Virus record (IMG/VR): IMGVR_UViG_3300045918_000131
Coordinates: 1 to 64,000 of that record
DNA length: 64,000 nt
Source: a virus
Strand: one strand, 5' to 3'
The notes under the pieces: model-generated
What the model was told of the DNA's origin: nothing
Database searches by the model: none
What the model saw: only the letters and a program-made list of their open reading frames with translations
Part shown: in pieces, positions 1 to 54,658 of the stretch
Layout: the number at the start of each line of letters is the position of its first letter
Position numbering within the stretch: position 1 is the stretch's first letter
Made by a program: the position numbers and the translations under genes

Positions 1-378
1 TGTAACAATGGTGTTTGTTGCATTCTGCGACGGCAAATTGTAATAATTACTAAAAGTGTTTAAATCGGTAACTATTTGAGCAAATGTAGACGACCCAGGT
101 GCATCAACAATTGCAATTACTTGCCCCGCGCCTGTTAACGATGCCGGCATATTATAGTGTTTTGTTACATCCAACGGACTAAGAGTATTGCCTCTGCCGG
201 TACCAACCTTTGCAAAGGATGTCATCATTGGTTCGGCATCAGCAGCGGGCGCGACTGTTGGTGCTGCTAAAGGAATACTATTTGGATTTGCGGCCGTGCT
301 GGTTGTTCCGCCGCCACCGCCACATCCACCAAAGACCAATGCGATTGCTGCGACTAATATAAGATTACGAGTTTTCAT
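1..378 (-). CDS. Lipoprotein, S53/S8 (sedolisin/kumamolisin-like) serine protease, runs off the left edge of the window
   Basis: Not in the ORF track. Manual translation: MKTRNLILVAAIALVFGG|CGGGGG (signal peptide with lipobox-like Cys)...LSPLDVTKHYNMPASLTGAGQVIAIVDAPG...DLNTFSNYYNLP, which matches the S53 N-terminal pattern 'TP.QIR.AYG..GAGQTIAIVDA..DL..F..YGLP'. GGAGG RBS at 386-390. Confidence 0.75.
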   Translation of the reverse strand, partial: MKTRNLILVAAIALVFGGCGGGGGTTSTAANPNSIPLAAPTVAPAADAEPMMTSFAKVGTGRGNTLSPLDVTKHYNMPASLTGAGQVIAIVDAPGSSTFAQIVTDLNTFSNYYNLPSQNATNTIVT

Positions 379-382
379 TTTA

Positions 383-411
383 TTACCTCCATTAAGTTTA
401 AATAAAGGTAA
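383..411 (-). promoter_or_regulatory. SD-sequestering hairpin (riboswitch expression platform)
   Basis: UUACCUUUAUU can pair over 11 bp (including 2 G-U pairs) with AAUGGAGGUAA, which contains the RBS. Confidence 0.65.
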
Positions 412-444
412 AAATGGGTAACGATCAAAACAGTTGAACTTCCT

Positions 445-530
445 GATTTGCAGCTGGCTGGCATGACTTGCGTCGTAGCCCCTCTAGCATTGCGTCACCG
501 ATTTTCACCGGTTTTGCCAAAATTACATTT
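445..530 (-). ncRNA. Cyclic di-GMP-I (GEMM) riboswitch aptamer
   Basis: Minus strand reads GGCAAAAC-CGGU-GAAA-AUCGG-UGACGCAA-UGCUAGAGGGGCUAC-GACGCAAGUC-AUGCCAGCCAGCUGC-AAAU. It matches the GEMM-I consensus (GNRA tetraloop, GACGCAA junction, CAGCCAGYUGC) and lies in the 5' UTR of the protease gene. Confidence 0.9.
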
Positions 531-540
531 GCTTCATTTG

Positions 541-549
541 TATTTATCC
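541..549 (-). promoter_or_regulatory. T4-like late promoter motif GGATAAATA upstream of the riboswitch
   Basis: Variant of T4 gp55 TATAAATA. The same motif precedes structural genes (about 21841, 23626, 28160). Confidence 0.55.
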
Positions 550-677
550 ACTTATTCAATTAAGTGCGAATTTACACATTTGATCTTTTGCGCTTTTCTT
601 TAGCGTATGTGTATATAATAACACCTTTTTGAGTAAATGTCAAGAACTTTATTCAATTTTGGTTGAAATATCTGTTG

Positions 678-935
678 CTAACCCCATCTTAATACAAATA
701 ACATAGCATCTTTGTTGTTTTTAAAGATAAACTCCCAGTTTTGACTCTTAACCGAATCAACGCAGTTATCTTCTAGCCATCCTTGTATAGAGAGGCAATC
801 GGCTGCATTTTTGATAGGCTTAATCTTAATCCTAGTCCACCCAGACGTAACCATATAATCTGAGAAAATGCTCCAATCAATGGTTGCACTTATCTTTTCT
901 GATAAAGCATTAGTTATGTCTTCTTCTAAACCCAT
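678..935 (-). CDS. Small paralog family member (C-terminal DAxxFxLxW)
   Basis: Ends FIFKNNKDAMLFVLRWG. Confidence 0.8.
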   Translation of the reverse strand: MGLEEDITNALSEKISATIDWSIFSDYMVTSGWTRIKIKPIKNAADCLSIQGWLEDNCVDSVKSQNWEFIFKNNKDAMLFVLRWG

Positions 936-967
936 TATATCACATGTCCATTTTAACTAGCTGTAGT

Positions 968-1381
968 TTACGCATATTTCAATAATAACATCATAGCATC
1001 TTCTTCACTATTAGTTGCAACAAAAAGCTCGTCTGTCCCGAATTCCGTGAAATGAAATCTATGATCATGTTGATTCCATTCTCCTCGAAATATATTATAA
1101 TAACAATGGTTACCTAATGGTCTTTTTGGCCACATATAACTTAAGAAATCTGCATTAGGACACAACCCCCATATATCTGCTTCTGTGAATACTTTTGCGT
1201 AATCCGTCGTGAAAACAAACTTATACCCATAAAAATAATTATTAGCATCGCCTGCATTCTGTACTATATTTCGGTCTTTCCAATATACATAATCGCGATC
1301 TGCTTTTGGTAATCCCGTTTTCCAAGTTAAATACTTGTCTTCAACAATATCTAATATAGTTATGAGCATAATAGAAACCAC
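968..1381 (-). CDS. Small paralog family member, extended
   Basis: Ends NSEEDAMMLLLKYA. Confidence 0.75.
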   Translation of the reverse strand: MVSIMLITILDIVEDKYLTWKTGLPKADRDYVYWKDRNIVQNAGDANNYFYGYKFVFTTDYAKVFTEADIWGLCPNADFLSYMWPKRPLGNHCYYNIFRGEWNQHDHRFHFTEFGTDELFVATNSEEDAMMLLLKYA

Positions 1382-1608
1382 ATTAGATCTTCTTCTGTGT
1401 CAAACTCTATAGATGGGCCGTATGCATCATTATATGCAGTATGTTGATCTTTTACCATCTTCGCATTAAACGTATGAAGATAAGGTTGAGACATTTCCAT
1501 AATGCCCCTCCCGTTAGATATAGCTATCCATTCTCTTTGCCATTTAAGGAATAGAGAACGCCAGACTCTTGTATGTACCTTATTACCGGGTATTATTTTT
1601 ATAGCCAT
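1360..1608 (-). CDS. Small paralog family member
   Basis: Ends FDTEEDLMWFLLCS. Confidence 0.75.
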   Translation of the reverse strand: MAIKIIPGNKVHTRVWRSLFLKWQREWIAISNGRGIMEMSQPYLHTFNAKMVKDQHTAYNDAYGPSIEFDTEEDLMWFLLCS

Positions 1609-1928
1609 TTCAAACTTACCAATGTACCAACCATATCTTCTAATAACGGACGATAGACTACGTTAGGGTCATTTGTCTCAACATCCACTTTATTTCCGTC
1701 TGGTGCTGTATGTATCGTATGCCAACCATGTTTTGGCCACTTTACATGTATCTTATAACCAGGTATTAAATACCAAAATATTTGCGATACGATGCTTATA
1801 TTTTTCAAATACGAGTTCTTTTCATACCTGGCTACTTCAGCACAATGGTTAAGCATAAATTTAATTTGCTTATTATTAATAATATCTTCTATCATGTCCA
1901 CCTCAATGTAAATATTAGCGCATCGCAC
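1599..1928 (-). CDS. Divergent array member (true start probably about 1895)
   Basis: Ends LKWL and is translationally coupled to its neighbours. Confidence 0.55.
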   Translation of the reverse strand: MRCANIYIEVDMIEDIINNKQIKFMLNHCAEVARYEKNSYLKNISIVSQIFWYLIPGYKIHVKWPKHGWHTIHTAPDGNKVDVETNDPNVVYRPLLEDMVGTLVSLKWL

Positions 1929-2107
1929 TCATTCTGAAACCACCAAACAGTATCGTTGGTTGCTGCTCTAAAAGTGAATTTGTGAATAGAATCAAAGTCA
2001 ACGCACCATTCTCTTATTTCAGTAATGTTACATTTGTCAATTGCTACTCGTGTCCACGAAGTGCCGGAATTATCCCACCAATCATCATAGAACAACATTA
2101 TGACCAC
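1892..2107 (-). CDS. Small paralog family member
   Basis: REWC...WFQNECDALIFTLRWT. Confidence 0.8.
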   Translation of the reverse strand: MVIMLFYDDWWDNSGTSWTRVAIDKCNITEIREWCVDFDSIHKFTFRAATNDTVWWFQNECDALIFTLRWT

Positions 2108-2301
2108 CTCAATGCAAATAACATAGCATCTTTCTTGTACTTAAACTCATAAGTAACTCCATCCTCGCTAACTTTTCCGGAACATCTAAACCATGTATTA
2201 CTATAAAAGTCAACGCCAAAATGAGTTATGCACCATAAAAATCGTTCTTGTCCGTTGTTAGGTAAAAAAGGAACGACTATCTTGTATCTCATACTACCCA
2301 C
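2098..2301 (-). CDS. Small paralog family member
   Basis: LWCITHFG...FKYKKDAMLFALRWS. Confidence 0.8.
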   Translation of the reverse strand: MGSMRYKIVVPFLPNNGQERFLWCITHFGVDFYSNTWFRCSGKVSEDGVTYEFKYKKDAMLFALRWS

Positions 2302-2489
2302 TTTATCTTAAACCACATTGCATCCTTAGCATCTCTAAATGTATATGTTTGATAACCAAACATCTCTGTTACAGACCAACGTTCACAATCCTTAATAGTA
2401 TAATTATATTCTCCGAATTGTTCACCGCACCACTTCCGAATCTCGGTTTGTAATTGATAAGAATCACGGCCTAACATTATTGTTATCAT
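2289..2489 (-). CDS. Small paralog family member
   Basis: KWCGEQFG...FRDAKDAMWFKIKW. Confidence 0.8.
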   Translation of the reverse strand: MITIMLGRDSYQLQTEIRKWCGEQFGEYNYTIKDCERWSVTEMFGYQTYTFRDAKDAMWFKIKWVV

Positions 2490-2638
2490 TAGCGTCGTCG
2501 ACTAATAAATTAATATGTAATACATAGATATTACAGCTAATATTAATATAATTATTAGTATTGGTACATACTCAACAGCTAGGTAAACTTCTTGTTTTTT
2601 GCAACGCAACGTTGAATCTAAATCAGGTTTTAATCTCT

Positions 2639-2868
2639 TCATATATTTTTTGTCTCCTGTGCTGCTATATTTACCCATCGAAGTGTAAACCACATGGCGT
2701 CTTTTTCGGACTTAGAACAGTAAGTCATATACTCATGACTTCTAAAAAATAACAATTTTTTGATTGTAAATATCCGTTATTCGATAGCCATTGATTAATA
2801 GTTGATATTTCGTTCTGTATTAAAACTGTAAATTGTACTGGTCAAATTTTCTTATTTAATATTCTCAT
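2639..2868 (-). pseudogene. Broken small paralog
   Basis: MRILNKKI*PVQF (TGA at 2842-2844, probably from TGG), plus a 1-nt frameshift in a T run before SEKDAMWFTLRW. Confidence 0.7.
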
Positions 2869-2873
2869 AGTTA

Positions 2874-3065
2874 TTAACCTCCCCATTTCAAAATAAATAC
2901 CACTTCGTCTTTCTCGTCGTAAAATGAAAAAGATCTAAACGGAAGCAGGTTCACGCCTACCCATTCTGTGTAATTACCATATCCAATATTATCTATTAAC
3001 CATTGATCTATAGATTCACCTGTCTGAGTCAACCTCTCATTACTAATACGTATTTTTCTAATCAT
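2874..3065 (-). CDS. Small paralog family member
   Basis: QWLIDNIG...FYDEKDEVVFILKWGG. Confidence 0.8.
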   Translation of the reverse strand: MIRKIRISNERLTQTGESIDQWLIDNIGYGNYTEWVGVNLLPFRSFSFYDEKDEVVFILKWGG

Positions 3066-3074
3066 ATAATAACA

Positions 3075-3233
3075 CTATGACCATTTTAATGCAAATAGTA
3101 CAGCATCTTTCTCGTCAACAAAAGAAAAGATACTATTGAAGTCAAATCCATTATCAACACGTTTACGGTCGATAGTATACTTGTATTCAAGGCCTATTCT
3201 ATTATTAGGATGTTGTATAGTATATGCGTTCAT
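3075..3233 (-). CDS. Small paralog family member (52 aa, below the ORF-track cutoff)
   Basis: MNAYTIQH...FSFVDEKDAVLFALKWS. Confidence 0.7.
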   Translation of the reverse strand: MNAYTIQHPNNRIGLEYKYTIDRKRVDNGFDFNSIFSFVDEKDAVLFALKWS

Positions 3234-3239
3234 TGGTTT

Positions 3240-3455
3240 TTAACTATATTTTAGAATGAATAGTAAATAATCGTTGTTTGTTCTAAATTCAAATTCAACA
3301 CGTATAGCTGTATAGTCGGATGTATATAACGTTAATACGTAATTCCCGGGGTAAGTTAAATATACATAGTTGGCGATAGCTTGTTCGGTTTCGGAATCAT
3401 ATATTTCAAACCCCCATATTTCTGCTATTTCGGCTTCGATTCTTTTTAGGACCAT
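3240..3455 (-). CDS. Small paralog family member
   Basis: Ends FRTNNDYLLFILKYS. Confidence 0.75.
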   Translation of the reverse strand: MVLKRIEAEIAEIWGFEIYDSETEQAIANYVYLTYPGNYVLTLYTSDYTAIRVEFEFRTNNDYLLFILKYS

Positions 3456-3643
3456 TTTATCAAAAACATTAGAGCGTCAGTGTTATTACGAAAAAAGAAG
3501 TATCCTCTACTATTAAATCCCCATCTGTTATCCTGGAAAGTATGTTCGCAGTAATTCATCAAGTCTGATAATCCATGCTTAAATACGTTATATTTTCTAG
3601 GTGTTATTTCTATCCACCCATAAGGAGTTGTTTCTAAATACAT
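3446..3643 (-). CDS. Small paralog family member
   Basis: Ends FRNNTDALMFLIKWS. Confidence 0.8.
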   Translation of the reverse strand: MYLETTPYGWIEITPRKYNVFKHGLSDLMNYCEHTFQDNRWGFNSRGYFFFRNNTDALMFLIKWS

Positions 3644-3644
3644 A

Positions 3645-3857
3645 TTAAGCCCATTTTAATAGGAACATTAACGCATCCGACGAGTTCACAAACCCGTATG
3701 GTACCATGCTATCAACAGCGTTTCCTCGAATCCATTGAATACCACATACTCCAACATATTCTTCGCACCAAAGATATCTTTCTGCTCCTTTTGATATACT
3801 AATGCCAAGCAACGGTACCTTAACCCAGATCCAATTATTTTTGGTATCTACGTCCAT
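3645..3857 (-). CDS. Small paralog family member
   Basis: LWCEEYVG...FVNSSDALMFLLKWA. Confidence 0.8.
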   Translation of the reverse strand: MDVDTKNNWIWVKVPLLGISISKGAERYLWCEEYVGVCGIQWIRGNAVDSMVPYGFVNSSDALMFLLKWA

Positions 3858-4063
3858 TTTAATGTAAAGAATACCGTATCTTCCTCTCGTTTAAACCAAA
3901 AGTATATATTTTGTCCTATTGTCCAGTCTCGTCCTATATACCATAGCTTAGAGTCATTGTTGTCATCATCCATGTACATAGACATAGGACCTATGTGTTG
4001 CTCGCACCAATCTATTGCTTGTTGCAGTTCATCAAACATTAAATTAACAGGCACTCTTGACAT
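3848..4063 (-). CDS. Small paralog family member
   Basis: DWCEQHIG...FKREEDTVFFTLKWT. Confidence 0.8.
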   Translation of the reverse strand: MSRVPVNLMFDELQQAIDWCEQHIGPMSMYMDDDNNDSKLWYIGRDWTIGQNIYFWFKREEDTVFFTLKWT

Positions 4064-4067
4064 ATAA

Positions 4068-4282
4068 TTAACGCCATTTTAAACAAAACAACATCATATC
4101 GTCCTCTCTTTTAAAAAAGAAAATTTTCCATTTTGATACCAACGCATATCAGTCCACTTACAATTTTTATCGCGTTTCTTACCTTGGAATGGTGCTCCAA
4201 ACGTTTCAACACACCACGCATAATATGAGGCAGTCAATTCGCATGTATCTGCTAATTTAACCTTATGATAGTTCACAACCAC
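4068..4282 (-). pseudogene. Frameshifted small paralog
   Basis: The ORF at 4094-4282 ends KERTI*. The -1 frame continues FFFKREDDMMLFCLKWR*. Confidence 0.7.
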
Positions 4283-4488
4283 CTCAATGTGAATAACATT
4301 GCATCTTTTTCGTCAAGAAAGATAAATTCAGGTTGACTAAAAGTAACTGTTGAGTACCAACGTATTGACGTTTCAGTAGTAATAGATGTTTTAGACAGAC
4401 TAGGTCCAAATTGTGTCACACACCAAGCATATATCTCGTCATACTTAACGTAGTGAGATTTAGATAGTAATATAATAGTATTACTCAT
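4273..4488 (-). CDS. Small paralog family member
   Basis: AWCVTQFG...FLDEKDAMLFTLRWL. Confidence 0.8.
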   Translation of the reverse strand: MSNTIILLSKSHYVKYDEIYAWCVTQFGPSLSKTSITTETSIRWYSTVTFSQPEFIFLDEKDAMLFTLRWL

Positions 4489-4489
4489 A

Positions 4490-4690
4490 CTAACTCCACT
4501 TTAATGCAAATAATACAGCATCTCGTTCATCTTCAAACATAAAGCCTCCACCGCAGGCATAACAATACCCATCAGTACCGTTATTTGCACACCATTGTTC
4601 TAATAGGTTAATATAATATATACTAACCCATGTAACGTTAATCATTACCCATTTAGATGTATATAACACGCTGGTTTTAATAACTTTCAT
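4490..4690 (-). CDS. Small paralog family member
   Basis: QWCANNG...FEDERDAVLFALKWS. Confidence 0.8.
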   Translation of the reverse strand: MKVIKTSVLYTSKWVMINVTWVSIYYINLLEQWCANNGTDGYCYACGGGFMFEDERDAVLFALKWS

Positions 4691-4696
4691 CTTACG

Positions 4697-4878
4697 TTAA
4701 CTCCACTTCAATGCAAAAAACACTGCATCTTTTTAAATCGAAATCGATAATGGCCACGAAGCGGATATTTAACAGTCTTCCATACAATTCCATATTTACC
4801 AATATTCTCACGGCACCAGGTACTTATTTCTAGTGCTAACACTGAGTTACAATTATTAACGCAGATTTTATGTTTCAT
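4697..4878 (-). pseudogene. Frameshifted small paralog
   Basis: MKHKICV...TWCRENIG...YRFRFK, then a shifted frame KDAVFFALKWS*. Confidence 0.7.
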
Positions 4879-4879
4879 A

Positions 4880-5080
4880 CTAACTCCACTTTAATGCAAA
4901 TAATACAGCATCTCGTTCATGTATAAAGCAGTAATTTATACAACCATTCTGGTATTGAGTAATTTTCCAACGATAATTATACAGCCCTAAATTCTCATTG
5001 CACCATTTTGATATTTCTAACTTTAGATGGAACTGTTTAATGTAAACAATTGAGACTTTATAGTCGTATGTTACAGCCAT
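4880..5080 (-). CDS. Small paralog family member
   Basis: KWCNENLG...FIHERDAVLFALKWS. Confidence 0.8.
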   Translation of the reverse strand: MAVTYDYKVSIVYIKQFHLKLEISKWCNENLGLYNYRWKITQYQNGCINYCFIHERDAVLFALKWS

Positions 5081-5770: not shown

Positions 5771-5820
5771 TATTTAATACAGCTATTATACACTAATTAA
5801 TCAAAAAGTCAAGATCTTTA
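5771..5820 (-). promoter_or_regulatory. Conserved early sigma70-type promoter driving rnh and the paralog array
   Basis: TTGACT-N16-TATAAT embedded in the repeated element AAAGATCTTGAC...TATAATAGCT.TATTAAATA. Confidence 0.75.
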
Positions 5821-6207
5821 ATCAAAAGGTTTCACGGGTACACCATTCAAATACCAATACTTTGATCCATCTGCATCTTCAATGGCAGGACCATCTTCCC
5901 TATGCCGTTTACCATTCAAATACCAATACTTTGATCCATCTGCATCTTCAATGGCAGGACCATCTTCCCTATGACATTTATCATTCAAATACCAATGTTT
6001 TGATCCATCTGCATGTTCAATGGCAGGACCATCTTCCCTATGCCGTTTACCATTCAAATACCAATGTTTTGATCCATCTGCATATTCAATGGCAGGACCA
6101 TCTTCCCTATGCCGTTTACCATTCAAATACCATTCTTTTGATCCATCTGCATCTGTGGTAATAGTATAACGAAGTAAATCCCACATTAGTTGTTCTTCAG
6201 TATTCAT
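5818..6207 (-). CDS. Protein with 21-aa tandem repeats (KxWYLNGKRHREDGPAIExADGS), MORN/YwqK-like
   Basis: Four to five near-identical 63-bp in-frame repeats. Confidence 0.8.
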   Translation of the reverse strand: MNTEEQLMWDLLRYTITTDADGSKEWYLNGKRHREDGPAIEYADGSKHWYLNGKRHREDGPAIEHADGSKHWYLNDKCHREDGPAIEDADGSKYWYLNGKRHREDGPAIEDADGSKYWYLNGVPVKPFD

Positions 6208-7829: not shown

Positions 7830-9728
7830 TTACTTAACTTCAGAAAACTCTGCGTCAACTACTGTTCCAGCATCTTTAGGTGCATCTGTTGGAGCCTCTT
7901 GTGCCTTAGCCTGTTCAGCTGCATACATTTTTTCTCCCAACTTTTGTGCTGCTGTAGCAAGTGCTTCGGTTTTTGCAACAATATCATCCTTAACATCGCT
8001 AGTTACTACTGTTTCTGCATCTTTCATAGCAGTTTCAATAGCTTCCTTTTCGCTAATATCTAACTGACTTCCGTACTCTTCTAATGATTTCTTAGTAGAG
8101 TGGATTAAACCATCTAGATTGTTACGAGCCATAATAAGTTCGATTGCTTTCTTATCTTCTTCAGCGTTAGCTTCTGCATCCTGAACCATACGATTAATAT
8201 CTTCCTCAGATAAACCGCTATTAGCTTTAATAGTAATCTTATTTTCTTTACCAGTAGCTTTATCTTTAGCACTAACTTTTAAAATACCGCTTGCGTCAAT
8301 ATCTAAAGTAATTTCAATTTGTGGTACGCCTCTACGTGCAGGAGCAATACCCTCGAGATTAAATTGACCAAGCACTTTATTATGTTTTGCTAATTCGCGT
8401 TCCCCTTGACATACAATAACTGATACAGCTGGTTGATTATCATCGGCTGTACTAAACACCTGTGTTGCTTTAGTTGGGATAGTAGTATTTTTCTTAATGA
8501 GTTTAGTCATCACACCACCCATCGTTTCAATACCGAACGATAAAGGAACAACGTCAAGTAACAATACATCTGTAACATCTCCCTGTAATACACCACCCTG
8601 GATAGCTGCGCCTGCTGCAACTGCTTCGTCTGGGTTGACGTCTTTACGCGGTTCCTTACCGAAATATTCTTCTAATTTCTTTTGAACTAACGGAATACGT
8701 GTAGAACCACCTACTAATAAAACTTCGTCAATGTCTGTTACAGACAAACCTGCATCTTTTACTGATACTTTACAACAATCAATAACTTTATTAATCAAGT
8801 GTTCAACAAGAGATTCAAATTTTGAACGTGTAATCTTTATTGCGAGATGTTTAGGCCCAGATGCATCAGCTGTAACATACGGAATATTAATCTCTGTTTG
8901 TTGTGTAGAAGAAAGTTCAATTTTAGCCTTCTCTGACGTCTCTTTAATACGCTGCATTGCAAGAGGATCTTTACTTAAATCAATACCACTTTCTTTCTTA
9001 AATTCTGAGATTACATAGTCCATTAACGCATGATCGATATCTTCCCCGCCCAAGAAGACGTTGCCATGTGTTGACAACACCTCAAATTGCGATTCTCCAT
9101 CAATGTAACTAATATCAATTATTGATAAATCCGTCGTCCCCCCGCCGAAATCCGCGACGGCGATCTTACGATCCTTTTTATCTTTTGAATCAACGCCAAA
9201 TACCATTGCGGCGGCTGTAGGCTCATTTATGATTCGTTTTACTTCAAGTCCTGCAATTTTACCAGCAGCTTTTGTAGCTTCTCGTTGATCATTATCAAAA
9301 TACGCCGGTACTGTGATTACTGCTTCGGTAACAGCGTACCCTAAGTAATCTTCGGCTGTTTTTTTCATCTTACTTAGCACTTGTGCAGAAATTTCTTGTG
9401 GAGACAAATCTTTACCATTTGCTCTTACCCAGGCATCTCCATTGGTGCTTTTATAAATCTCGTAAGGGACGATTTCTGCTGTATGTTTTGTTTCTGCACT
9501 ATCGTAACGTTGACCCATTAAACGCTTAACAGCGTAAATTGTATTTTTGGGGTTAGTTACTGCTTGACGTTTAGCGGAAGCACCAACTAAAGTTTCTTCT
9601 CCGTAAGCAACGATACTAGGTGTGGTTCTAGCTCCTTCTGAGTTTTCAATAATCTTGTATTTACCGTTTTCCATAACAGCAACACACGAATTCACCGTTC
9701 CTAAGTCAATTCCAATAATTTTAGACAT
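7830..9728 (-). CDS. dnaK: Hsp70 chaperone DnaK
   Basis: [39 protein letters not shown] linker, C-terminal [10 protein letters not shown]; AGGAG RBS. Confidence 0.97.
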
Positions 9729-9795
9729 AATATTTCTCCTTTTAATAAGCAAGTTTTAAAATATAGTAATCCGACCATCGGCATTACTATATGTA
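9729..9795 (-). promoter_or_regulatory. ROSE-like RNA thermometer leader of dnaK
   Basis: Hairpin AUAGUAAU-GCCGAUGGUCGG-AUUACUAU, then CUUGCUU...AAGGAG pairing the SD with a bulged G. Confidence 0.65.
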
Positions 9796-19610: not shown

Positions 19611-20420
19611 TTATTTGCTCATCAATTCTGGATCAGCACCATAAAAGATAACAGCTTCTCTATTTAGAATTGATCCCAGTGGAGGTAAGTCCAATACCTT
19701 AACAACCGAACGTGTAACTTTTAATTCTGGGTTCACCCGCGCAGTATGTTTTTCTGGCAATTTAGAAAGTTCTTCTGTACTAAATGGAATTTCTTCTGTC
19801 CTACGCTGAACATAGGTGCCGCGTTTAAAATAGGTAGGATAGTCGTTCCAGTTAATCCCTTTTTGAAATAACAGTTCTTGCTTTTCTGACCCGGTCTTCT
19901 CGTGTAATGTTTTATGACTATAGTAATGAGAAGCCGCCATACTAATACTATTCTTAGTAGCATCCCATTCTCTCCATAGAAACACGTTAGCTCCTTCTGA
20001 CGTATTAGGTACGTTCCATACGCGAGCATCAAATGTTGGCATACGACTAGCATACGTTGGCATACGTTGTAGTACTTCTCGATAAAAGAACAAAGTTGCT
20101 TGAGCACCAAGTTGAGAAGTCATTTTCTGAATCTTTCCGTCAAACCATACTTGTTGCTTTGGATTTGTTACATGCCAGCATAACGAAATTTCGTCTGATT
20201 GTGTGTACGACATCGAGGCACCGGTTTCCTTCACTAATTCAATAGCAGTAGTAATCATACACTGTGTAAAAATTTCGTCAAAAGGTCTATCCATTCCCTT
20301 TGTAAAGTTATGAAATGATCTACCATCAATCCTAGCCATAATAGGCAAACCTGGCATTAACTTGCGGCCACATTCCATTCCTTCATACAATTTCATTCTA
20401 TCGCCAAAATCATCTCTCAT
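19611..20420 (-). CDS. tRNA(His) guanylyltransferase Thg1-like 3'-5' polymerase
   Basis: GDRMKLYE, ARIDGRSFHNFT, PFD, YTQSDEISL, FDAR, WRE.DA.KNSI. Confidence 0.92.
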   Translation of the reverse strand: MRDDFGDRMKLYEGMECGRKLMPGLPIMARIDGRSFHNFTKGMDRPFDEIFTQCMITTAIELVKETGASMSYTQSDEISLCWHVTNPKQQVWFDGKIQKMTSQLGAQATLFFYREVLQRMPTYASRMPTFDARVWNVPNTSEGANVFLWREWDATKNSISMAASHYYSHKTLHEKTGSEKQELLFQKGINWNDYPTYFKRGTYVQRRTEEIPFSTEELSKLPEKHTARVNPELKVTRSVVKVLDLPPLGSILNREAVIFYGADPELMSK

Positions 20421-23671: not shown

Positions 23672-25543
23672 ATGACACAAATATCTCTGCAACAAGTTAA
23701 TACAGGAACCGGAGCAAATACAGGTACTGGCGATACACTATTAAGAGCATTCACTATTACTGATCAGAATTTCAACAATATCGAAATAGCTATCAATAGT
23801 TTAATATCAAGTTCTGCATTAACGATATCGTCTTTTAGTCAAAATATCGCTTTTAATTCTGGAACAATTAGCACTAACCCAAGTACTGGATCATTAGTAG
23901 TTAATGGCGGCGCCGGAGTTACAGGAAACGTTAATGTAGGCGGAGATATTTCTGGAAAACAAATTACAGTAAACGATACATATACAGGAACATTAATAGT
24001 TAATGGCGGTGCTGGAGTTACAGGAAACGTTAATGTAGGCGGAGATATTTCTATTAATGGGTCATTAACTGTATTCGGCAATACTACCACAATCAGTACA
24101 TCAGAGTACATAGTTCAGCATCCTACTATACAGTTAGGGGGAGCCAACTTATTAAATGGTCCAAGTGTCACACTTTCAAGTAATGATGGGTATGATAGAG
24201 GTATTGATTTTTATTGGTATAATATCTCTCAACATCAAGGGTTTTTTGGTTTACAGAATTCAACCGGTAGATTTACATTTATTCCGTCTATAACATCCGG
24301 ATCAGATAATCACCCAGTTTTTTCAGGGTCGCCAGGAGATGCAGTATTTAATACTGTCTATGCTAATGTTAATGCTATTGGATCAAGCACATTTAATTCT
24401 ATCAACGTAACAAATGGGATTACTGGGACATTATTTACGGCTGCACAACCTAATATTACTAGTGTTGGTCACTTATCGTCCTTAATAGTAAATGGAGACA
24501 TAAACACTGGGACAATACATGCATCTGAGATTTTAATTGGCGGTAGTCCTGTTGTAACAAGTGCGACTACTTTTCGTGGTGGAATAGTAGCATTAGACAC
24601 TGAATTTTCTAGCAATGTTATAATTGATAAAAGTCTAACTGTAAATGGTAACTTAACTTTATCAAACTTCTATGCCACTAACATAGGTGGTACATTAACA
24701 ACAGCTTCGCAACCTAATATTACTTCTGTTGGAGACTTAATTAATTTAAAAGTAAATAATAATATCACTGTTAGTGGTAACGTGTCTGCAACATATTTAT
24801 CTGGTACACTAACAACAGGTACTCAAACACTCACTAAGTTAACAGTCACTACCCCTATTACTGGAAATATAACAGGTAGTTCGGTAACGGTTACGGGTGC
24901 TAATCAAGGTGCAATAAAACAAGTAGGTTTATTAAACAATCTCTCAGTAAGTGGAACTATAGATGCAGCATCAGATATTCATTTTTCTAATAGTGCTGGC
25001 ATTAGATTTACAGATAATACTTACTTAACTACCACTAACGGGTTAGGTGGAGTAACACCTGGCCCAACAGGTCCTCAAGGACCAACAGGCCCTGCATCAA
25101 CGGTGGTTGGCCCTACAGGTCCTGCCGGAGCAAATTCTACGGTTATTGGCCCAACTGGTCCTCAGGGTGCTATCGGTCCAACAGGTCCTGCAGGAGCATC
25201 TACGACAAACCTAACTTATTTGGGTTCGTATACTTCGGTGTACATAGGAGATATGTCATCTGGAAATAGAACATTTTCGTTACTAGTTTCATCTTATAGT
25301 TTCTTATCTAATTTAAAAATACCCGTAGTGACACTCGAATATGATTATTGGGTGTGGTATGGTGGTTATGGGGGTACAGGTACTATTAGCTTAGTCAGTG
25401 TATCTAACCGAACACCTGGTATAAACAGTACTACTGGTCAAAATGTCTCTGGAGATTACTTGGATATAGTAGTTTACTTAGGTCCAGGGGGCGGGTACTA
25501 TTCCGCATGGCCAAATACTATCACACTAAAATTCTGGAGATAA
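23672..25543 (+). CDS. Tail fiber protein
   Basis: GTGDTLLRAF N-terminus, AAQPNITSVG repeats, collagen segment, variable C-terminal domain. Confidence 0.75.
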   Translation: MTQISLQQVNTGTGANTGTGDTLLRAFTITDQNFNNIEIAINSLISSSALTISSFSQNIAFNSGTISTNPSTGSLVVNGGAGVTGNVNVGGDISGKQITVNDTYTGTLIVNGGAGVTGNVNVGGDISINGSLTVFGNTTTISTSEYIVQHPTIQLGGANLLNGPSVTLSSNDGYDRGIDFYWYNISQHQGFFGLQNSTGRFTFIPSITSGSDNHPVFSGSPGDAVFNTVYANVNAIGSSTFNSINVTNGITGTLFTAAQPNITSVGHLSSLIVNGDINTGTIHASEILIGGSPVVTSATTFRGGIVALDTEFSSNVIIDKSLTVNGNLTLSNFYATNIGGTLTTASQPNITSVGDLINLKVNNNITVSGNVSATYLSGTLTTGTQTLTKLTVTTPITGNITGSSVTVTGANQGAIKQVGLLNNLSVSGTIDAASDIHFSNSAGIRFTDNTYLTTTNGLGGVTPGPTGPQGPTGPASTVVGPTGPAGANSTVIGPTGPQGAIGPTGPAGASTTNLTYLGSYTSVYIGDMSSGNRTFSLLVSSYSFLSNLKIPVVTLEYDYWVWYGGYGGTGTISLVSVSNRTPGINSTTGQNVSGDYLDIVVYLGPGGGYYSAWPNTITLKFWR

Positions 25544-35195: not shown

Positions 35196-35377
35196 TATGA
35201 ATATCATAGGACGTATATTATTTGTATTGCTTACTTGGCCTGCAGTAGCGTTTATTGATGTTCCAAATATAGGATGGAGCCTATTTCTAATAGAGATGTT
35301 AGATTTCGTTAGATATGGCGACAAAGAGCTTCCGGAAGAATTTCTGGATAAATAACTATATTAAATGGGTTAAAATT

Positions 35378-35764
35378 ATGCTAAAGGTATTAGTAATCGA
35401 TGACGACAACGCAATATGCTTAATGGTTAGAACTGCATTTTCAGACGAAGATAACTATACTGTCATCGAAGCAAACACGGCTGCACAGGGTCTATTAGAC
35501 ATAATTAAATATGTACCAGATGTCATTATACTTGATGTTCATTTACACGATTGTATTACAGGCATAGACATTCTTAATGCAATAGAGCAGAACAAGACAC
35601 TAAATCACATACATATATTCACAGTTACCTCGTCCGAATATGAATTAGTGTCAAAATCTATTACTTTGGGTGCAGATGATTACTTTATCAAGCCATTTAA
35701 TATCAAAGATCTAGTGTCTGCTGTAAAACGCAAATTTAATCCTAAGTTATTAGATCGAGCATAA
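35378..35764 (+). CDS. Stand-alone response-regulator receiver domain (CheY-like)
   Basis: VLVIDDD, PDVIILD (phosphoacceptor), VTS, GADDYFIKPF; GGATAAATA at about 35346. Confidence 0.9.
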   Translation: MLKVLVIDDDNAICLMVRTAFSDEDNYTVIEANTAAQGLLDIIKYVPDVIILDVHLHDCITGIDILNAIEQNKTLNHIHIFTVTSSEYELVSKSITLGADDYFIKPFNIKDLVSAVKRKFNPKLLDRA

Positions 35765-51702: not shown

Positions 51703-52377
51703 TTAGCCAATAACCCAAGGGTCAACGATAACGGGAGTATTATTTCTTAGCATGTAATTACCTTGATGTAAGTCAAAATTCCAACCGTAATCGTATCCTA
51801 TTCTGTCTATATCAAACACTGTTTGAACTAGTAACTCTAAATGTTTTCCTGCTATCTTTTTGAGTTGTTTGTAGTATATTACATTATCAAAAGAACTATC
51901 AAACATATATTCGTAATAACCTTCATGGATGTTCGATCTAGAGTAGTATGCACTATTCTCCGTAATATATTCTGACAGTGATAATAAGGCTTCGCCATAC
52001 TGTCCGGCTTCTGTTAAACGTTCCATACGTATCTGTAGGTACATACGTTCGTCAAATATAAACTTCTCAAAACCATCAAACCTTGGCAAAAAAGGATTGT
52101 TACTATTTTTACAGTAGTTAGCCCAAAATACAAACATCTCTTGATCGCTGCTTAATTGTGAACTACTTTCACCAAACGTGTTGGTTTCTTTTGTTCCAAA
52201 TATTTTAAGTACCTTACCTGTTCCAGGCTCTAAAAAAGCTGTTTGATCGGCTCCAGCAAAACCAAGTTGTTTATATCCTTTTTGACGTAGTACTTTGTAT
52301 ATATCAGAATGTGTGGAAGACTATTCTTCTAGATTTTCTTCCTCAATTATTGATACCTTTAGATCTTGTATTCTCAT
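51703..52377 (-). pseudogene. Protein-kinase-like (APH/ePK fold) gene interrupted by an in-frame TAG at codon 19
   Basis: MRIQDLK...NLEE*SSTH...GFAGADQTAF...VLKIFG...DLHQGNYM...IVDPW. Paralog 59193-59843 has LDEW at the equivalent position. Confidence 0.75.
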
Positions 52378-54587
52378 TTAACTACTCCTTTTGCAACAAA
52401 CATTGTAAAATCTTCTATAGATAACGGTTTACTAAAAAGATATCCTTGATAATACTTACAACCGTAATCAAACAATGTTTGTCTTTGTTCTTCGGTCTCG
52501 ACACCTTCGGCAATAACTTCTAACCCCAAGCCCTGTGCCATTGCTATAATAGTTTTAACTATAGCTTTATCGTTGTTACTGAATTGTAAATCTCTAACAA
52601 AAGATTTATCTATTTTGAGCTGATTTAATGGTAATATTTTTAAATATTGTAAGGAAGAAAATCCGGTTCCAAAGTCATCTAATGAAAAGTGTATACCTAG
52701 TTTCCTTAATTGATTAATGACAGATATTGATGTATCTACATTTTCTAATAATATACTCTCTGTAGGTTCTAATTTAAGCAATGTTGTGTCGAATTGATAT
52801 TTATGTATTAATTTATGTACATTAGATACAAAATTAGGATCTAAGAATTGTTTTGCACTTACGTTAACAGATATAGTTAATTTTTGCGTAGTAACGTCAT
52901 CTTTCCATAGCGTTAGTTGCTTACAGGCAGCTTCTAATACCCAATATCCTATGGGAATAATTAACCCTGTATCTTCTGCTACGGGAATAAAAACTATCGG
53001 AGATATTTCTAATTCTTGTTTATTAGAATTCCATCTAAGTAATGCTTCTGCACCAATTATATTATAATTTTCGTCGACTTGCGCCTGGTAGTGTAATGTA
53101 AACTCATTATTGTCAATAGCTGTTCTAAGTTTACTTTCTATATAAACCCTAGATGTAATATATGCTTGCATTTTTGGATCAAAAAATCGAATTGTGTTTT
53201 TACCTGCCTTTTTAGCTTGGTACATGGCAATATCTGCCTGTCTTAATATATCATCTACTTCACTAGTTTCTTGATTAAACAATGTGGCACCTATACTTGC
53301 AGTTATATTATAACTGCAATTTGGTAATATAATTTCGTCAATTAAAGACGTTAAAATTTTATTACTATATAGTTCTACTTGTGCGGCTGCTACTTGTAAG
53401 TTAACATCTAAATCGTGTAACATAACTACAAACTCGTCGCCGCCAAAACGGGCGACAGTATGTCCTACACGTAAACATTTCTCAATACGCCATGCTACTT
53501 GTTGTAACATAGTGTCCCCAATAACATATCCAAGCGACTCGTTCAAATATTTAAAGTTATCTAAATCTATGAATAATACTGCTCCGTACTTATTATTTAA
53601 CGACGTGTTAGATAAGGCTACCTGTAATCTATCTAATAACAATCTTTTATTAGGTAAACGTGTAAGCGTATCATAAAAGGCTAATAATTGTATTTCATCA
53701 GCAGCATCTTTATTGATTTTAATATCGGTTACTGTAGCGATGTAATTAGTTATAGTACCAAAAGAATTTTTAACAGCGGAAATATGTAAATGTTCTGGAT
53801 ATAACTCTCCGTTCTTACGTTTATTCCATATTTCCCCGCTCCAAAATCCTAGTTTATTAATTTCTGCCCATAGTCTAGTGTAAAATTCTTTCGTGTGTCT
53901 ACCAGAACTAAAGATTCTAGGGTTCTTACCTAATAGCTCGTGTTCTGAAAATCCTGTGATATTACAAAAAGATTGATTTACACGTAATATATTAGCTTGA
54001 GCATCTGTTACTATCATACCAACTTGCGAATTAAAAATCACAGCGGATATCTTCTCTTCTAAGAATCTTTTATTACGATCCGTAATATCATCTAACATCA
54101 TGCATAAAGTTGTACCATTTAACGTAGTCTTTAAACGACAGTTAACTTTACCATGCCTGATTGATTCGTTTAAAATAAAGTCTATATCAATTGAATGTTT
54201 TTGTGTATTATTTTTATCTATCATTATACTATCAAAGAAGTGTATCCATAGATCTTTATCTGCTATATGTTGTTTAAAACAACACCCAATGGCTGTATTC
54301 TTAGTAATTCCCAAAAGTTCGCACCCTGCATTATTGATATCTTGAATTTCACCACTGATCGACAATGAAAGGTAAGCTATAGGAGCAGTTTCAAACATAG
54401 TAACATAATCATCATGCGATTGAATTAATTTTACATGAGATAGCTTTAATTCTTCTAGTTGATTTTTTAACTCAAATTGACATTTTTCGCTTTCACGTAA
54501 AAGACGCTTGTAATTAACGGTTACTGGGTTAGTATCGTTATCTAAGGGGTCACATTTGTTTGTATTTGTGTTGTGGATTTTATTCAT
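52374..54587 (-). CDS. PAS-PAS-GGDEF-EAL diguanylate cyclase/phosphodiesterase
   Basis: Two PAS domains; YDTLTRLPN, FIDLDNFK, ARFGGDEF; EALLRW, VNVS, DDFGTGFSSL, LKIDKSF, AEGVET, QGYLF all intact; GGATAAATA at 54614-54622. Confidence 0.95.
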   Translation of the reverse strand: MNKIHNTNTNKCDPLDNDTNPVTVNYKRLLRESEKCQFELKNQLEELKLSHVKLIQSHDDYVTMFETAPIAYLSLSISGEIQDINNAGCELLGITKNTAIGCCFKQHIADKDLWIHFFDSIMIDKNNTQKHSIDIDFILNESIRHGKVNCRLKTTLNGTTLCMMLDDITDRNKRFLEEKISAVIFNSQVGMIVTDAQANILRVNQSFCNITGFSEHELLGKNPRIFSSGRHTKEFYTRLWAEINKLGFWSGEIWNKRKNGELYPEHLHISAVKNSFGTITNYIATVTDIKINKDAADEIQLLAFYDTLTRLPNKRLLLDRLQVALSNTSLNNKYGAVLFIDLDNFKYLNESLGYVIGDTMLQQVAWRIEKCLRVGHTVARFGGDEFVVMLHDLDVNLQVAAAQVELYSNKILTSLIDEIILPNCSYNITASIGATLFNQETSEVDDILRQADIAMYQAKKAGKNTIRFFDPKMQAYITSRVYIESKLRTAIDNNEFTLHYQAQVDENYNIIGAEALLRWNSNKQELEISPIVFIPVAEDTGLIIPIGYWVLEAACKQLTLWKDDVTTQKLTISVNVSAKQFLDPNFVSNVHKLIHKYQFDTTLLKLEPTESILLENVDTSISVINQLRKLGIHFSLDDFGTGFSSLQYLKILPLNQLKIDKSFVRDLQFSNNDKAIVKTIIAMAQGLGLEVIAEGVETEEQRQTLFDYGCKYYQGYLFSKPLSIEDFTMFVAKGVVK

Positions 54588-54658
54588 TCTATCTAATCAC
54601 TCAATATATTAGTTATTTATCCATTGCGATCAGGATAAGATTACTATATTTGTTAATA

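Follow-up and report, generated by a model that had tools for sequence, protein, structure and literature searches.

Why would a phage carry, at the very end of its contig, a leader RNA for a bacterial second messenger in front of a protease gene? The question is raised by the window analysed here, i.e. the whole stretch of 64,000 nucleotides (nt) that makes up the first 64 kb of the 94,248-nt linear virus record IMGVR_UViG_3300045918_000131 in IMG/VR. Close to position 1, on the minus strand, lies an aptamer of the class I riboswitches for cyclic di-GMP (c-di-GMP-I, or GEMM-I), preceded by a promoter-type motif of the phage and followed by the 5' part of a gene for a lipoprotein of the S53 protease family (sedolisins). 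The completeness of the record according to CheckV is 27%, which for a 94-kb piece implies a very large (jumbo) phage. We regard it as fairly probable that the contig end holds a host-derived cassette in which the riboswitch controls translation of the S53 lipoprotein and is OFF at high c-di-GMP.

The aptamer, its expression platform and the promoter motif

The first-pass annotation had placed a GEMM-I aptamer at 445-530 of the minus strand, with the equivalents of G20 and C92 intact. Both claims were borne out when the window was searched with cmscan against Rfam: RF01051 (c-di-GMP-I) matched at 446-528 with 56.6 bits (gathering score 35 bits; E 2.1e-8; model positions 1-87), the sole Rfam match in the whole window. 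In the Rfam consensus alignment G518, A491 and C450 correspond to G20, A47 and C92 of the Vibrio Vc2 aptamer, the residues that contact c-di-GMP in Vc2 (PMC6140456, PMC4744006). G518 stands directly before the first paired GC, A491 is the first A after GACGC, and C450 follows the closure of the second hairpin; the spacing of 27 nt between G518 and A491 is exactly that between G20 and A47 in Vc2. The first hairpin carries a GAAA tetraloop and the second a receptor-type internal loop, CUACG/CAUG (CUA.G/.AUG).

For comparison, six leaders were aligned with MAFFT: the phage leader and those of the metagenome contig L108, the bacterial genomes L023 and L022, and L103 and L104. Across these homologues the aptamer pairing is kept in 96% of the cells, two compensatory pairs are found in the distal stem of the P2 hairpin, and the columns equivalent to G20, A47 and C92 are identical in all six. 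Judged by its sequence, the element belongs to the true c-di-GMP-I aptamers, and among them to the G20/C92 type that is specific for c-di-GMP and not for cyclic GMP-AMP (cGAMP). Other viral contigs contained no exact match to the aptamer core.

Downstream of the aptamer the six leaders have in common a hairpin (H1), a conserved arm, and a helix between this arm and the segment that runs from the Shine-Dalgarno (SD) sequence to the start codon. The arm reads GUCRCC-AUUUUUGCC in most of them and GUUACC-C-AUUUUUACC in the phage, with a UUUCACC version in L022. In the phage the ribosome-binding site (RBS) hairpin formed in this way consists of 10 bp and 6 bp around a 2-nt bulge and covers both GGAGG and AUG; the 11-bp hairpin over the GGAGG that had been annotated initially thus exists, but is larger and includes the start codon. 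Taken alone the RBS hairpin is statistically ordinary (z -1.3), yet it is conserved in the homologues. The minimum free energy (MFE) fold contains this sequestor in five of the six leaders and the sixth has it as a duplex, and compensatory changes are seen in it (UGCC:GGCA in most leaders, UACC:GGUA in the phage and CACC:GGUG in L022).

The same arm has a second potential partner. When the segment from SD to AUG was forced to be single-stranded, the arm paired in all six leaders with the aptamer sequence GGUGAAAAU.GGUGAC, i.e. with a segment comprising first hairpin, tetraloop and junction. The resulting helix of 15-17 bp belongs to the unconstrained MFE fold in L108, L023 and L022. The predicted energy of this duplex is -19 to -23.5 kcal/mol in the six leaders, reached by 0 of 500 shuffles in any of them, and the arm:SD duplex is weaker with -12.5 to -16.3 kcal/mol; the values for the phage are -20.6 and -13.2 kcal/mol, respectively. 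Pairing between arm and aptamer is kept in 96.7% of 90 alignment cells, as compared with 39-63% when the partner is slid, a count that understates the phage helix since MAFFT puts the phage GUUACC out of register with GUCRCC. Where the arm varies (G/A, U/C) it always keeps its pairing to the invariant aptamer strand. Importantly, the sequestor offers no partner to GUCRCC/GUUACC, and pairing to the aptamer is therefore the best explanation for the conservation of this block.

Two other arrangements were considered and discarded. Compared with the first aptamer hairpin, the G-rich 5' strand of the second one offers the arm a weaker and less consistent pairing, and a transcription-terminator platform was rejected because no terminator-like site was found in positions 1-1500.

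The leader is preceded by the motif GGATAAATA, described in the first-pass annotation as a phage late-promoter motif just upstream of the aptamer. It was confirmed at the annotated place and ends 13 nt before the Rfam match; transcription starting a few nt downstream of the motif would place the aptamer at the extreme 5' end of the mRNA. The expectation for the window is 1.6 copies; it holds eight, a number reached in 0 of 100 shuffles, and the 94-kb record has ten. All copies are on the coding strand, nearly all have a start codon some 10-40 nt downstream, and an RBS usually stands in between. Since GGATAAATA is enriched, confined to the coding strand and nearly always near start codons, we conclude from its distribution that it is a genuine promoter-type signal of the phage.

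The attribute "late" did not hold up equally well. T4 late promoters have TATAAATA at -10, are read by a phage late sigma factor and are active late. The motif resembles them in being short and A/T-rich, lacking a -35 element, ending in ATAAATA and lying close upstream of structural-type genes; its first bases are GG and not TA, and for the exact T4 consensus TATAAATA there is no enrichment in the phage (8 found, 17.9 expected). Genes behind GGATAAATA include a tail-fibre-like gene (23672-25543), the first gene of a block holding an Mtd_N/collagen protein, and a gene whose product starts with MRANEFIIE. The structural-type genes among them would fit late expression.

A strong sigma-70-like site with 11 of 12 matches lies 70 nt upstream of the motif and about 80 nt upstream of the aptamer, and is a possible second promoter of host type; no promoter-like site was found between the aptamer and the start codon. 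At least seven other sigma-70-like promoters of the phage are followed by a AGCTTTATTAAATA box, which is missing at this site. These other promoters form a class of their own, in which TTGAC[CT]-16/17 nt-TATAAT is followed immediately by the conserved AGCTTTATTAAATA box, an RBS and a start codon (window positions 5812, 21741, 33484 and 34116 on the minus strand and 34759 on the plus strand; record positions 89748 and 90345, minus strand). They are probably early phage promoters of the host sigma-70 type with a phage-specific downstream element.

The protease gene and the origin of the cassette

The open reading frame (ORF) behind the leader comprises 126 codons before it runs off the contig end. 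The signal peptide of its product ends in ...LVFGGC (lipobox MKTRNLILVAAIALVFGG-C) and is followed by a Gly-rich linker; in the alignment the lipobox Cys is conserved in those relatives that have N-termini. The annotated lipoprotein was thereby recovered from sequence features, and the annotated S53-like protease was recovered at the level of family homology, via full-length relatives in which alone the catalytic residues are visible. The closest of these, P0001, is a protein of 429 amino acids (aa) encoded on a 1975-nt contig and is 90% identical to the fragment over all 126 residues; nine further relatives are 49-67% identical over the aligned parts.

The hallmark of S53 proteases is a catalytic Ser-Glu-Asp triad together with an oxyanion Asp. 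Residues 63-421 of P0001 match kumamolisin (1T1E) with an E value of 6.6e-24, and E147, D151, D230 (the oxyanion Asp) and S337 (in GGTSAGAP) are invariant in ten of ten relatives and align with the kumamolisin catalytic motifs. The phage-type proteins thus share a homologous catalytic domain with kumamolisin and other sedolisins (MEROPS S53; PDB 1T1E, 1GT9), with Glu, Asp, oxyanion Asp and Ser kept in the full-length relatives, but differ from them at the N-terminus. No Pfam prodomain family was matched, and the catalytic domain begins at about residue 63, after a lipoprotein signal and a short linker in place of the N-terminal prodomain. In a maximum-likelihood tree these lipoproteins form one separate clade (support 100/100) with environmental proteobacterial, Nitrospirota and viral members, and as far as the alignments tell this clade is a prodomain-less sedolisin variant. 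The phage gene would accordingly encode an outer-membrane-type lipoprotein protease of the S53 family.

Viral contigs gave no match when first scanned with the 126-aa fragment as a protein pattern. When species-representative genomes were scanned with the protein alignment many sedolisins were found, few of them full-length with the lipoprotein N-terminus. Directly upstream of the S53 lipoprotein gene RF01051 was present in three metagenome-assembled genomes (MAGs) with 63-67 bits: L022 (Nitrosomonadales), L023 (Nitrospirota, a 3-Mb contig) and L024 (Burkholderiales). The aptamer of L024 is more divergent, whereas L022, L023 and L108 have the phage-type aptamer and platform. An exact scan for the aptamer core in metagenome contigs gave ten more leaders; the one in L108 precedes a complete S53 lipoprotein of 435 aa. 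In the tree P0001 and P0002, both phage-like, group with the riboswitch-bearing L022 (98/97), next to the group of L023 and L108. The GC content at third codon positions (GC3) is 0.34 for the phage fragment, 0.22-0.25 for other phage genes and 0.44-0.55 for the bacterial homologues, and the closest bacterial aptamer and leader differ from those of the phage at many positions.

Near-identical units in bacterial genomes suggest that the combination of riboswitch and gene is not an invention of the phage. Because of these bacterial counterparts, the position in the tree, the intermediate GC3 and the presence of the phage motif inside the leader, we consider that the whole unit was probably captured from a bacterium and has since been resident in the phage. 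Full-length lipoprotein S53 homologues with 43-47% identity to P0001 are also encoded on four viral contigs (L002-L005). No Rfam match, even at E<=1, accompanies these or the bacterial homologues L025, L026 and L028, and the recurrence of sedolisin lipoproteins in uncultured phages is thus independent of the riboswitch. The riboswitch is likewise absent from five other large viral records, among them a 93%-complete distant relative of 331 kb, with a search that did detect RF01051 in the record of the window itself. Taken together with L002-L005, this absence indicates a lineage-specific acquisition and not a conserved feature of the lineage.

Some of the other leaders with the same aptamer core precede different genes. 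In L103 (1018-1185, minus strand), L104 (3404-3575, minus strand) and L110 the core is combined with H1, arm and sequestor before secreted proteins; the L103 protein is an S8 subtilase according to Pfam, and that of L104 shares its N-terminal region and has no Pfam match. In some environmental bacteria the riboswitch subtype may hence have proteases of more than one family under its control. An identical first-hairpin core with a different second hairpin is found in L102, L109 and L111 before secreted proteins of 204-206 aa, and the same first-hairpin core with a different second hairpin and terminator-like stems in L106 (before a response-regulator gene) and L107.

The proposed switch and its alternatives

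From these elements we infer a ligand response of the following kind. Transcription most likely begins just downstream of GGATAAATA, with the upstream sigma-70-like promoter as a possible second start. The arm would have two mutually exclusive partners. With no ligand bound, it would invade the first hairpin of the aptamer, leaving RBS and AUG free, and the protease would be made. Binding of c-di-GMP would lock the aptamer and release the arm, which would then pair with the segment from GGAGG to AUG and block initiation. Synthesis of the protease would in this way be restricted to cells with low c-di-GMP. A translational OFF switch is the likeliest reading of the folding predictions because the SD-masking arm is also complementary to the first hairpin of the aptamer in six leaders. 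The predicted direction agrees with that of Vc2, an OFF switch (bioRxiv 10.1101/617340).

Several findings weigh against this proposal. Even without ligand, the closed (OFF) fold of the phage leader is predicted to exceed the open fold in stability by 5.6 kcal/mol, and switching would therefore need to be kinetic, i.e. to occur during transcription, or it would be leaky. The aptamer strand is invariant and the changes in the anti-sequestor pairing are one-sided, which is not true covariation; moreover, the agreement among the six leaders is inflated by their common descent. H1, though conserved, is given no role in the proposed switch. The outer P1 helix can have only about three A-U pairs in the phage, with L023 and L108 allowing fewer still, and a competition between P1 and H1 is for this reason not claimed. 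The phage gene is cut at residue 126, before the catalytic Glu, and the rest of it was not found elsewhere in the 94-kb record, so that the intact protease is deduced from the relatives. The absence of the riboswitch from the five other viral records belongs here as well.

The opposite direction, in which binding of c-di-GMP opens the RBS hairpin and the protease is made at high c-di-GMP, would account for the folding predictions for the phage, L103 and L104, in which the sequestor forms the ground state; a switch that is OFF by default and activated by its ligand should look like this. Switches of the c-di-GMP-I class that work as ON switches are known, e.g. Vc1 before gbpA (PMC4744006), and H1 shares sequence with the 3' strand of a possible P1, by which a ligand-driven P1 could in principle remodel the downstream RNA. 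We nevertheless consider an ON switch unlikely. We found no segment able to take up the anti-SD arm solely in the folded state of the aptamer. The strand freed from H1 is U-rich, and its only possible partner, the AUG region, would be paired and not freed. The sole strong alternative partner of the arm lies inside the aptamer, in line with OFF logic. A change of ligand is far less probable still: GEMM-I variants with A at position 20 bind 3'3'-cGAMP (PMC6140456), and an aptamer sensing this or another dinucleotide might be imagined here, but at position 518 the phage has G, and so do all five homologous leaders of the alignment.

The cassette could also be a recent capture without a regulatory role in the phage, in which the aptamer has not yet decayed or the gene is a remnant. 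The lack of the riboswitch in five other large viral records, the riboswitch-free homologues L002-L005 and the truncation of the gene at the contig end would all agree with such a passenger. On the other hand, the promoter motif 13 nt upstream of the aptamer is phage-specific, the GC3 of the gene has moved well toward that of phage genes, the phage-specific substitutions in the arm preserve both pairings, and elsewhere there is a full-length gene of 90% identity whose catalytic set is intact; a mere passenger thus seems to us about as improbable as an ON switch. We attach very little weight to an assembly artefact, i.e. a bacterial fragment wrongly joined to a phage contig. The cassette does occupy the last 550 nt of a record end and its nearest relatives are bacterial, but the leader contains the phage's own GGATAAATA, the GC3 of 0.34 is far below that of the bacterial homologues, the closest bacterial aptamer and leader are different at many positions, and there is no break in composition. 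The OFF switch on a captured cassette remains the reading we prefer.

Table 1. Features of the riboswitch locus and of the phage gene for a c-di-GMP enzyme, with positions in the window.
Feature	Position	Strand	Details
Lipoprotein sedolisin (S53) gene, 5' part, 126 codons	1..378	-	ORF runs off contig end
Sequestered segment AAUGGAGGUAAUAAAAUG	376..393	-	SD GGAGG 386-390, start codon AUG 376-378
Switching arm GUUACC-C-AUUUUUACCUUUAUU (anti-SD and anti-AUG)	401..422	-	pairs with SD..AUG (376-393) or aptamer 494-509
Hairpin H1 CAAAUCAG...CUGUUUUG	426..450	-	directly after aptamer; structure conserved in homologues
c-di-GMP-I (GEMM-I) aptamer	446..528	-	RF01051, 56.6 bits; first hairpin with GAAA loop at about 497-512
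Anti-sequestor segment GGUGAAAAUCGGUGAC within aptamer	494..509	-	alternative partner of anti-SD arm
Phage promoter-type motif GGATAAATA	541..549	-	ends 13 nt upstream of Rfam match
Sigma-70-like promoter	615..643	-	TTGACA-17 nt-TATTAT, TG before -10 hexamer; 11/12 matches
PAS-GGDEF-EAL gene	52374..54587	-	GGATAAATA at 54614-54622 upstream

Signalling genes of the phage and relation to known systems

The GC content of the window is about 35%, and its phage genes include those for Hsp70, RNase H, an AAA ATPase, ribonucleotide reductase, tail-fibre-like proteins and a PAS-GGDEF-EAL protein. Neither megablast of positions 1-3000 nor tblastn of the 126-aa fragment and of P0001 gave a match among isolated phages, and tblastn of the AAA ATPase matched only distant, scattered ones; by these searches the phage has no close relative among isolated phages.

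The PAS-GGDEF-EAL protein has intact GGDEF, EAL, DDFGTG and EGVE motifs and is closest to families of the phosphodiesterase type, though below their cut-offs. Such an enzyme could set the c-di-GMP level during infection, and lowering it would open the switch. Its gene shares the GGATAAATA promoter class with the riboswitch gene and with a gene for a stand-alone receiver-domain protein (35378-35764, plus strand; Pfam Response_reg, E 3e-19; GGATAAATA at 35346-35354). One may picture a self-contained circuit, in which the PAS-GGDEF-EAL protein acts mainly as a phosphodiesterase, lowers host c-di-GMP late in infection and releases the OFF riboswitch, such that the protease appears only then. We infer this link between enzyme and switch, and the late timing it implies, only tentatively, and on balance we find the circuit doubtful. 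If true, the phage would have built a second-messenger timer from a stolen bacterial riboswitch cassette, with a protease appearing only after the phage has reset the lifestyle signal of its host. As to the target of the protease, the remodelling of matrix, adhesins or receptors proposed in the first-pass annotation is speculation.

Among the other genes, a full-length Hsp70 is encoded at 7830-9752 (E 2e-237), a 129-aa MORN-like repeat protein with five copies of DGSK.WYLNGKRHREDGPAIE at 5818-6207, and a Thg1-like tRNA-His guanylyltransferase at 19611-20420 (Pfam Thg1, 1e-27), all on the minus strand. Directly upstream of the riboswitch locus, at 678-5080 of the same strand, some 15-20 small ORFs of 52-85 aa are arranged head-to-tail, with a common C-terminal motif ...DA.LF.L+W.

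The phage switch shares its aptamer architecture, ligand-contact nucleotides and location in a 5' leader with Vc2 (tfoY leader, OFF), Vc1 (gbpA leader, ON) and the RF01051 family in general. It differs from Vc2 and Vc1 in residing in a jumbo phage, behind a phage promoter motif and before an S53 lipoprotein gene, and in its three-part platform of H1, aptamer-invading arm and SD/AUG sequestor, which it shares with a few environmental bacterial leaders. According to the survey by McCown et al. (2017, PMC5473149, citing Sudarsan et al. 2008), riboswitches are rarely carried by phages, and only two of the c-di-GMP-I class are listed, both in prophages of Clostridioides difficile. These are likewise c-di-GMP-I switches on phage DNA, but the phages are temperate prophages of a Firmicute, whereas the present phage is large and uncultured, has its own PAS-GGDEF-EAL enzyme and receiver protein, and has counterparts of its switch in Nitrosomonadales, Nitrospirota and Burkholderiales MAGs. 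We found no later report in the literature of c-di-GMP riboswitches in large phages of the lytic type.

A parallel for the predicted regulation is ZmpI (PPEP-1) of C. difficile, a protease that is repressed by c-di-GMP via a class I riboswitch and releases adhesins (PMC6366702). In both cases a secreted or surface protease is, or for the phage is predicted to be, under negative control by a class I c-di-GMP riboswitch, following the rule that low c-di-GMP gives protease. ZmpI is a zinc metalloprotease of a Gram-positive organism, in contrast to the serine-carboxyl (S53) lipoprotein of the phage, for which the control is predicted to be translational.

What is unusual about the locus is its carrier; the c-di-GMP-I aptamer itself is an ordinary one, its bacterial origin can be traced and its platform is well defined. 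The bacterial counterparts define a compact translational platform and a clade of prodomain-less lipoprotein sedolisins under predicted c-di-GMP control, for neither of which we found a prior description, and the same aptamer and platform also stand before an S8-type protease in bacteria (L103). A jumbo phage appears to have taken a complete bacterial unit of riboswitch and gene, put it behind its own promoter motif and kept both alternative helices through substitutions of its own. That a phage may read, and perhaps rewrite, the signal by which its host chooses between biofilm and motility is a directly testable idea.

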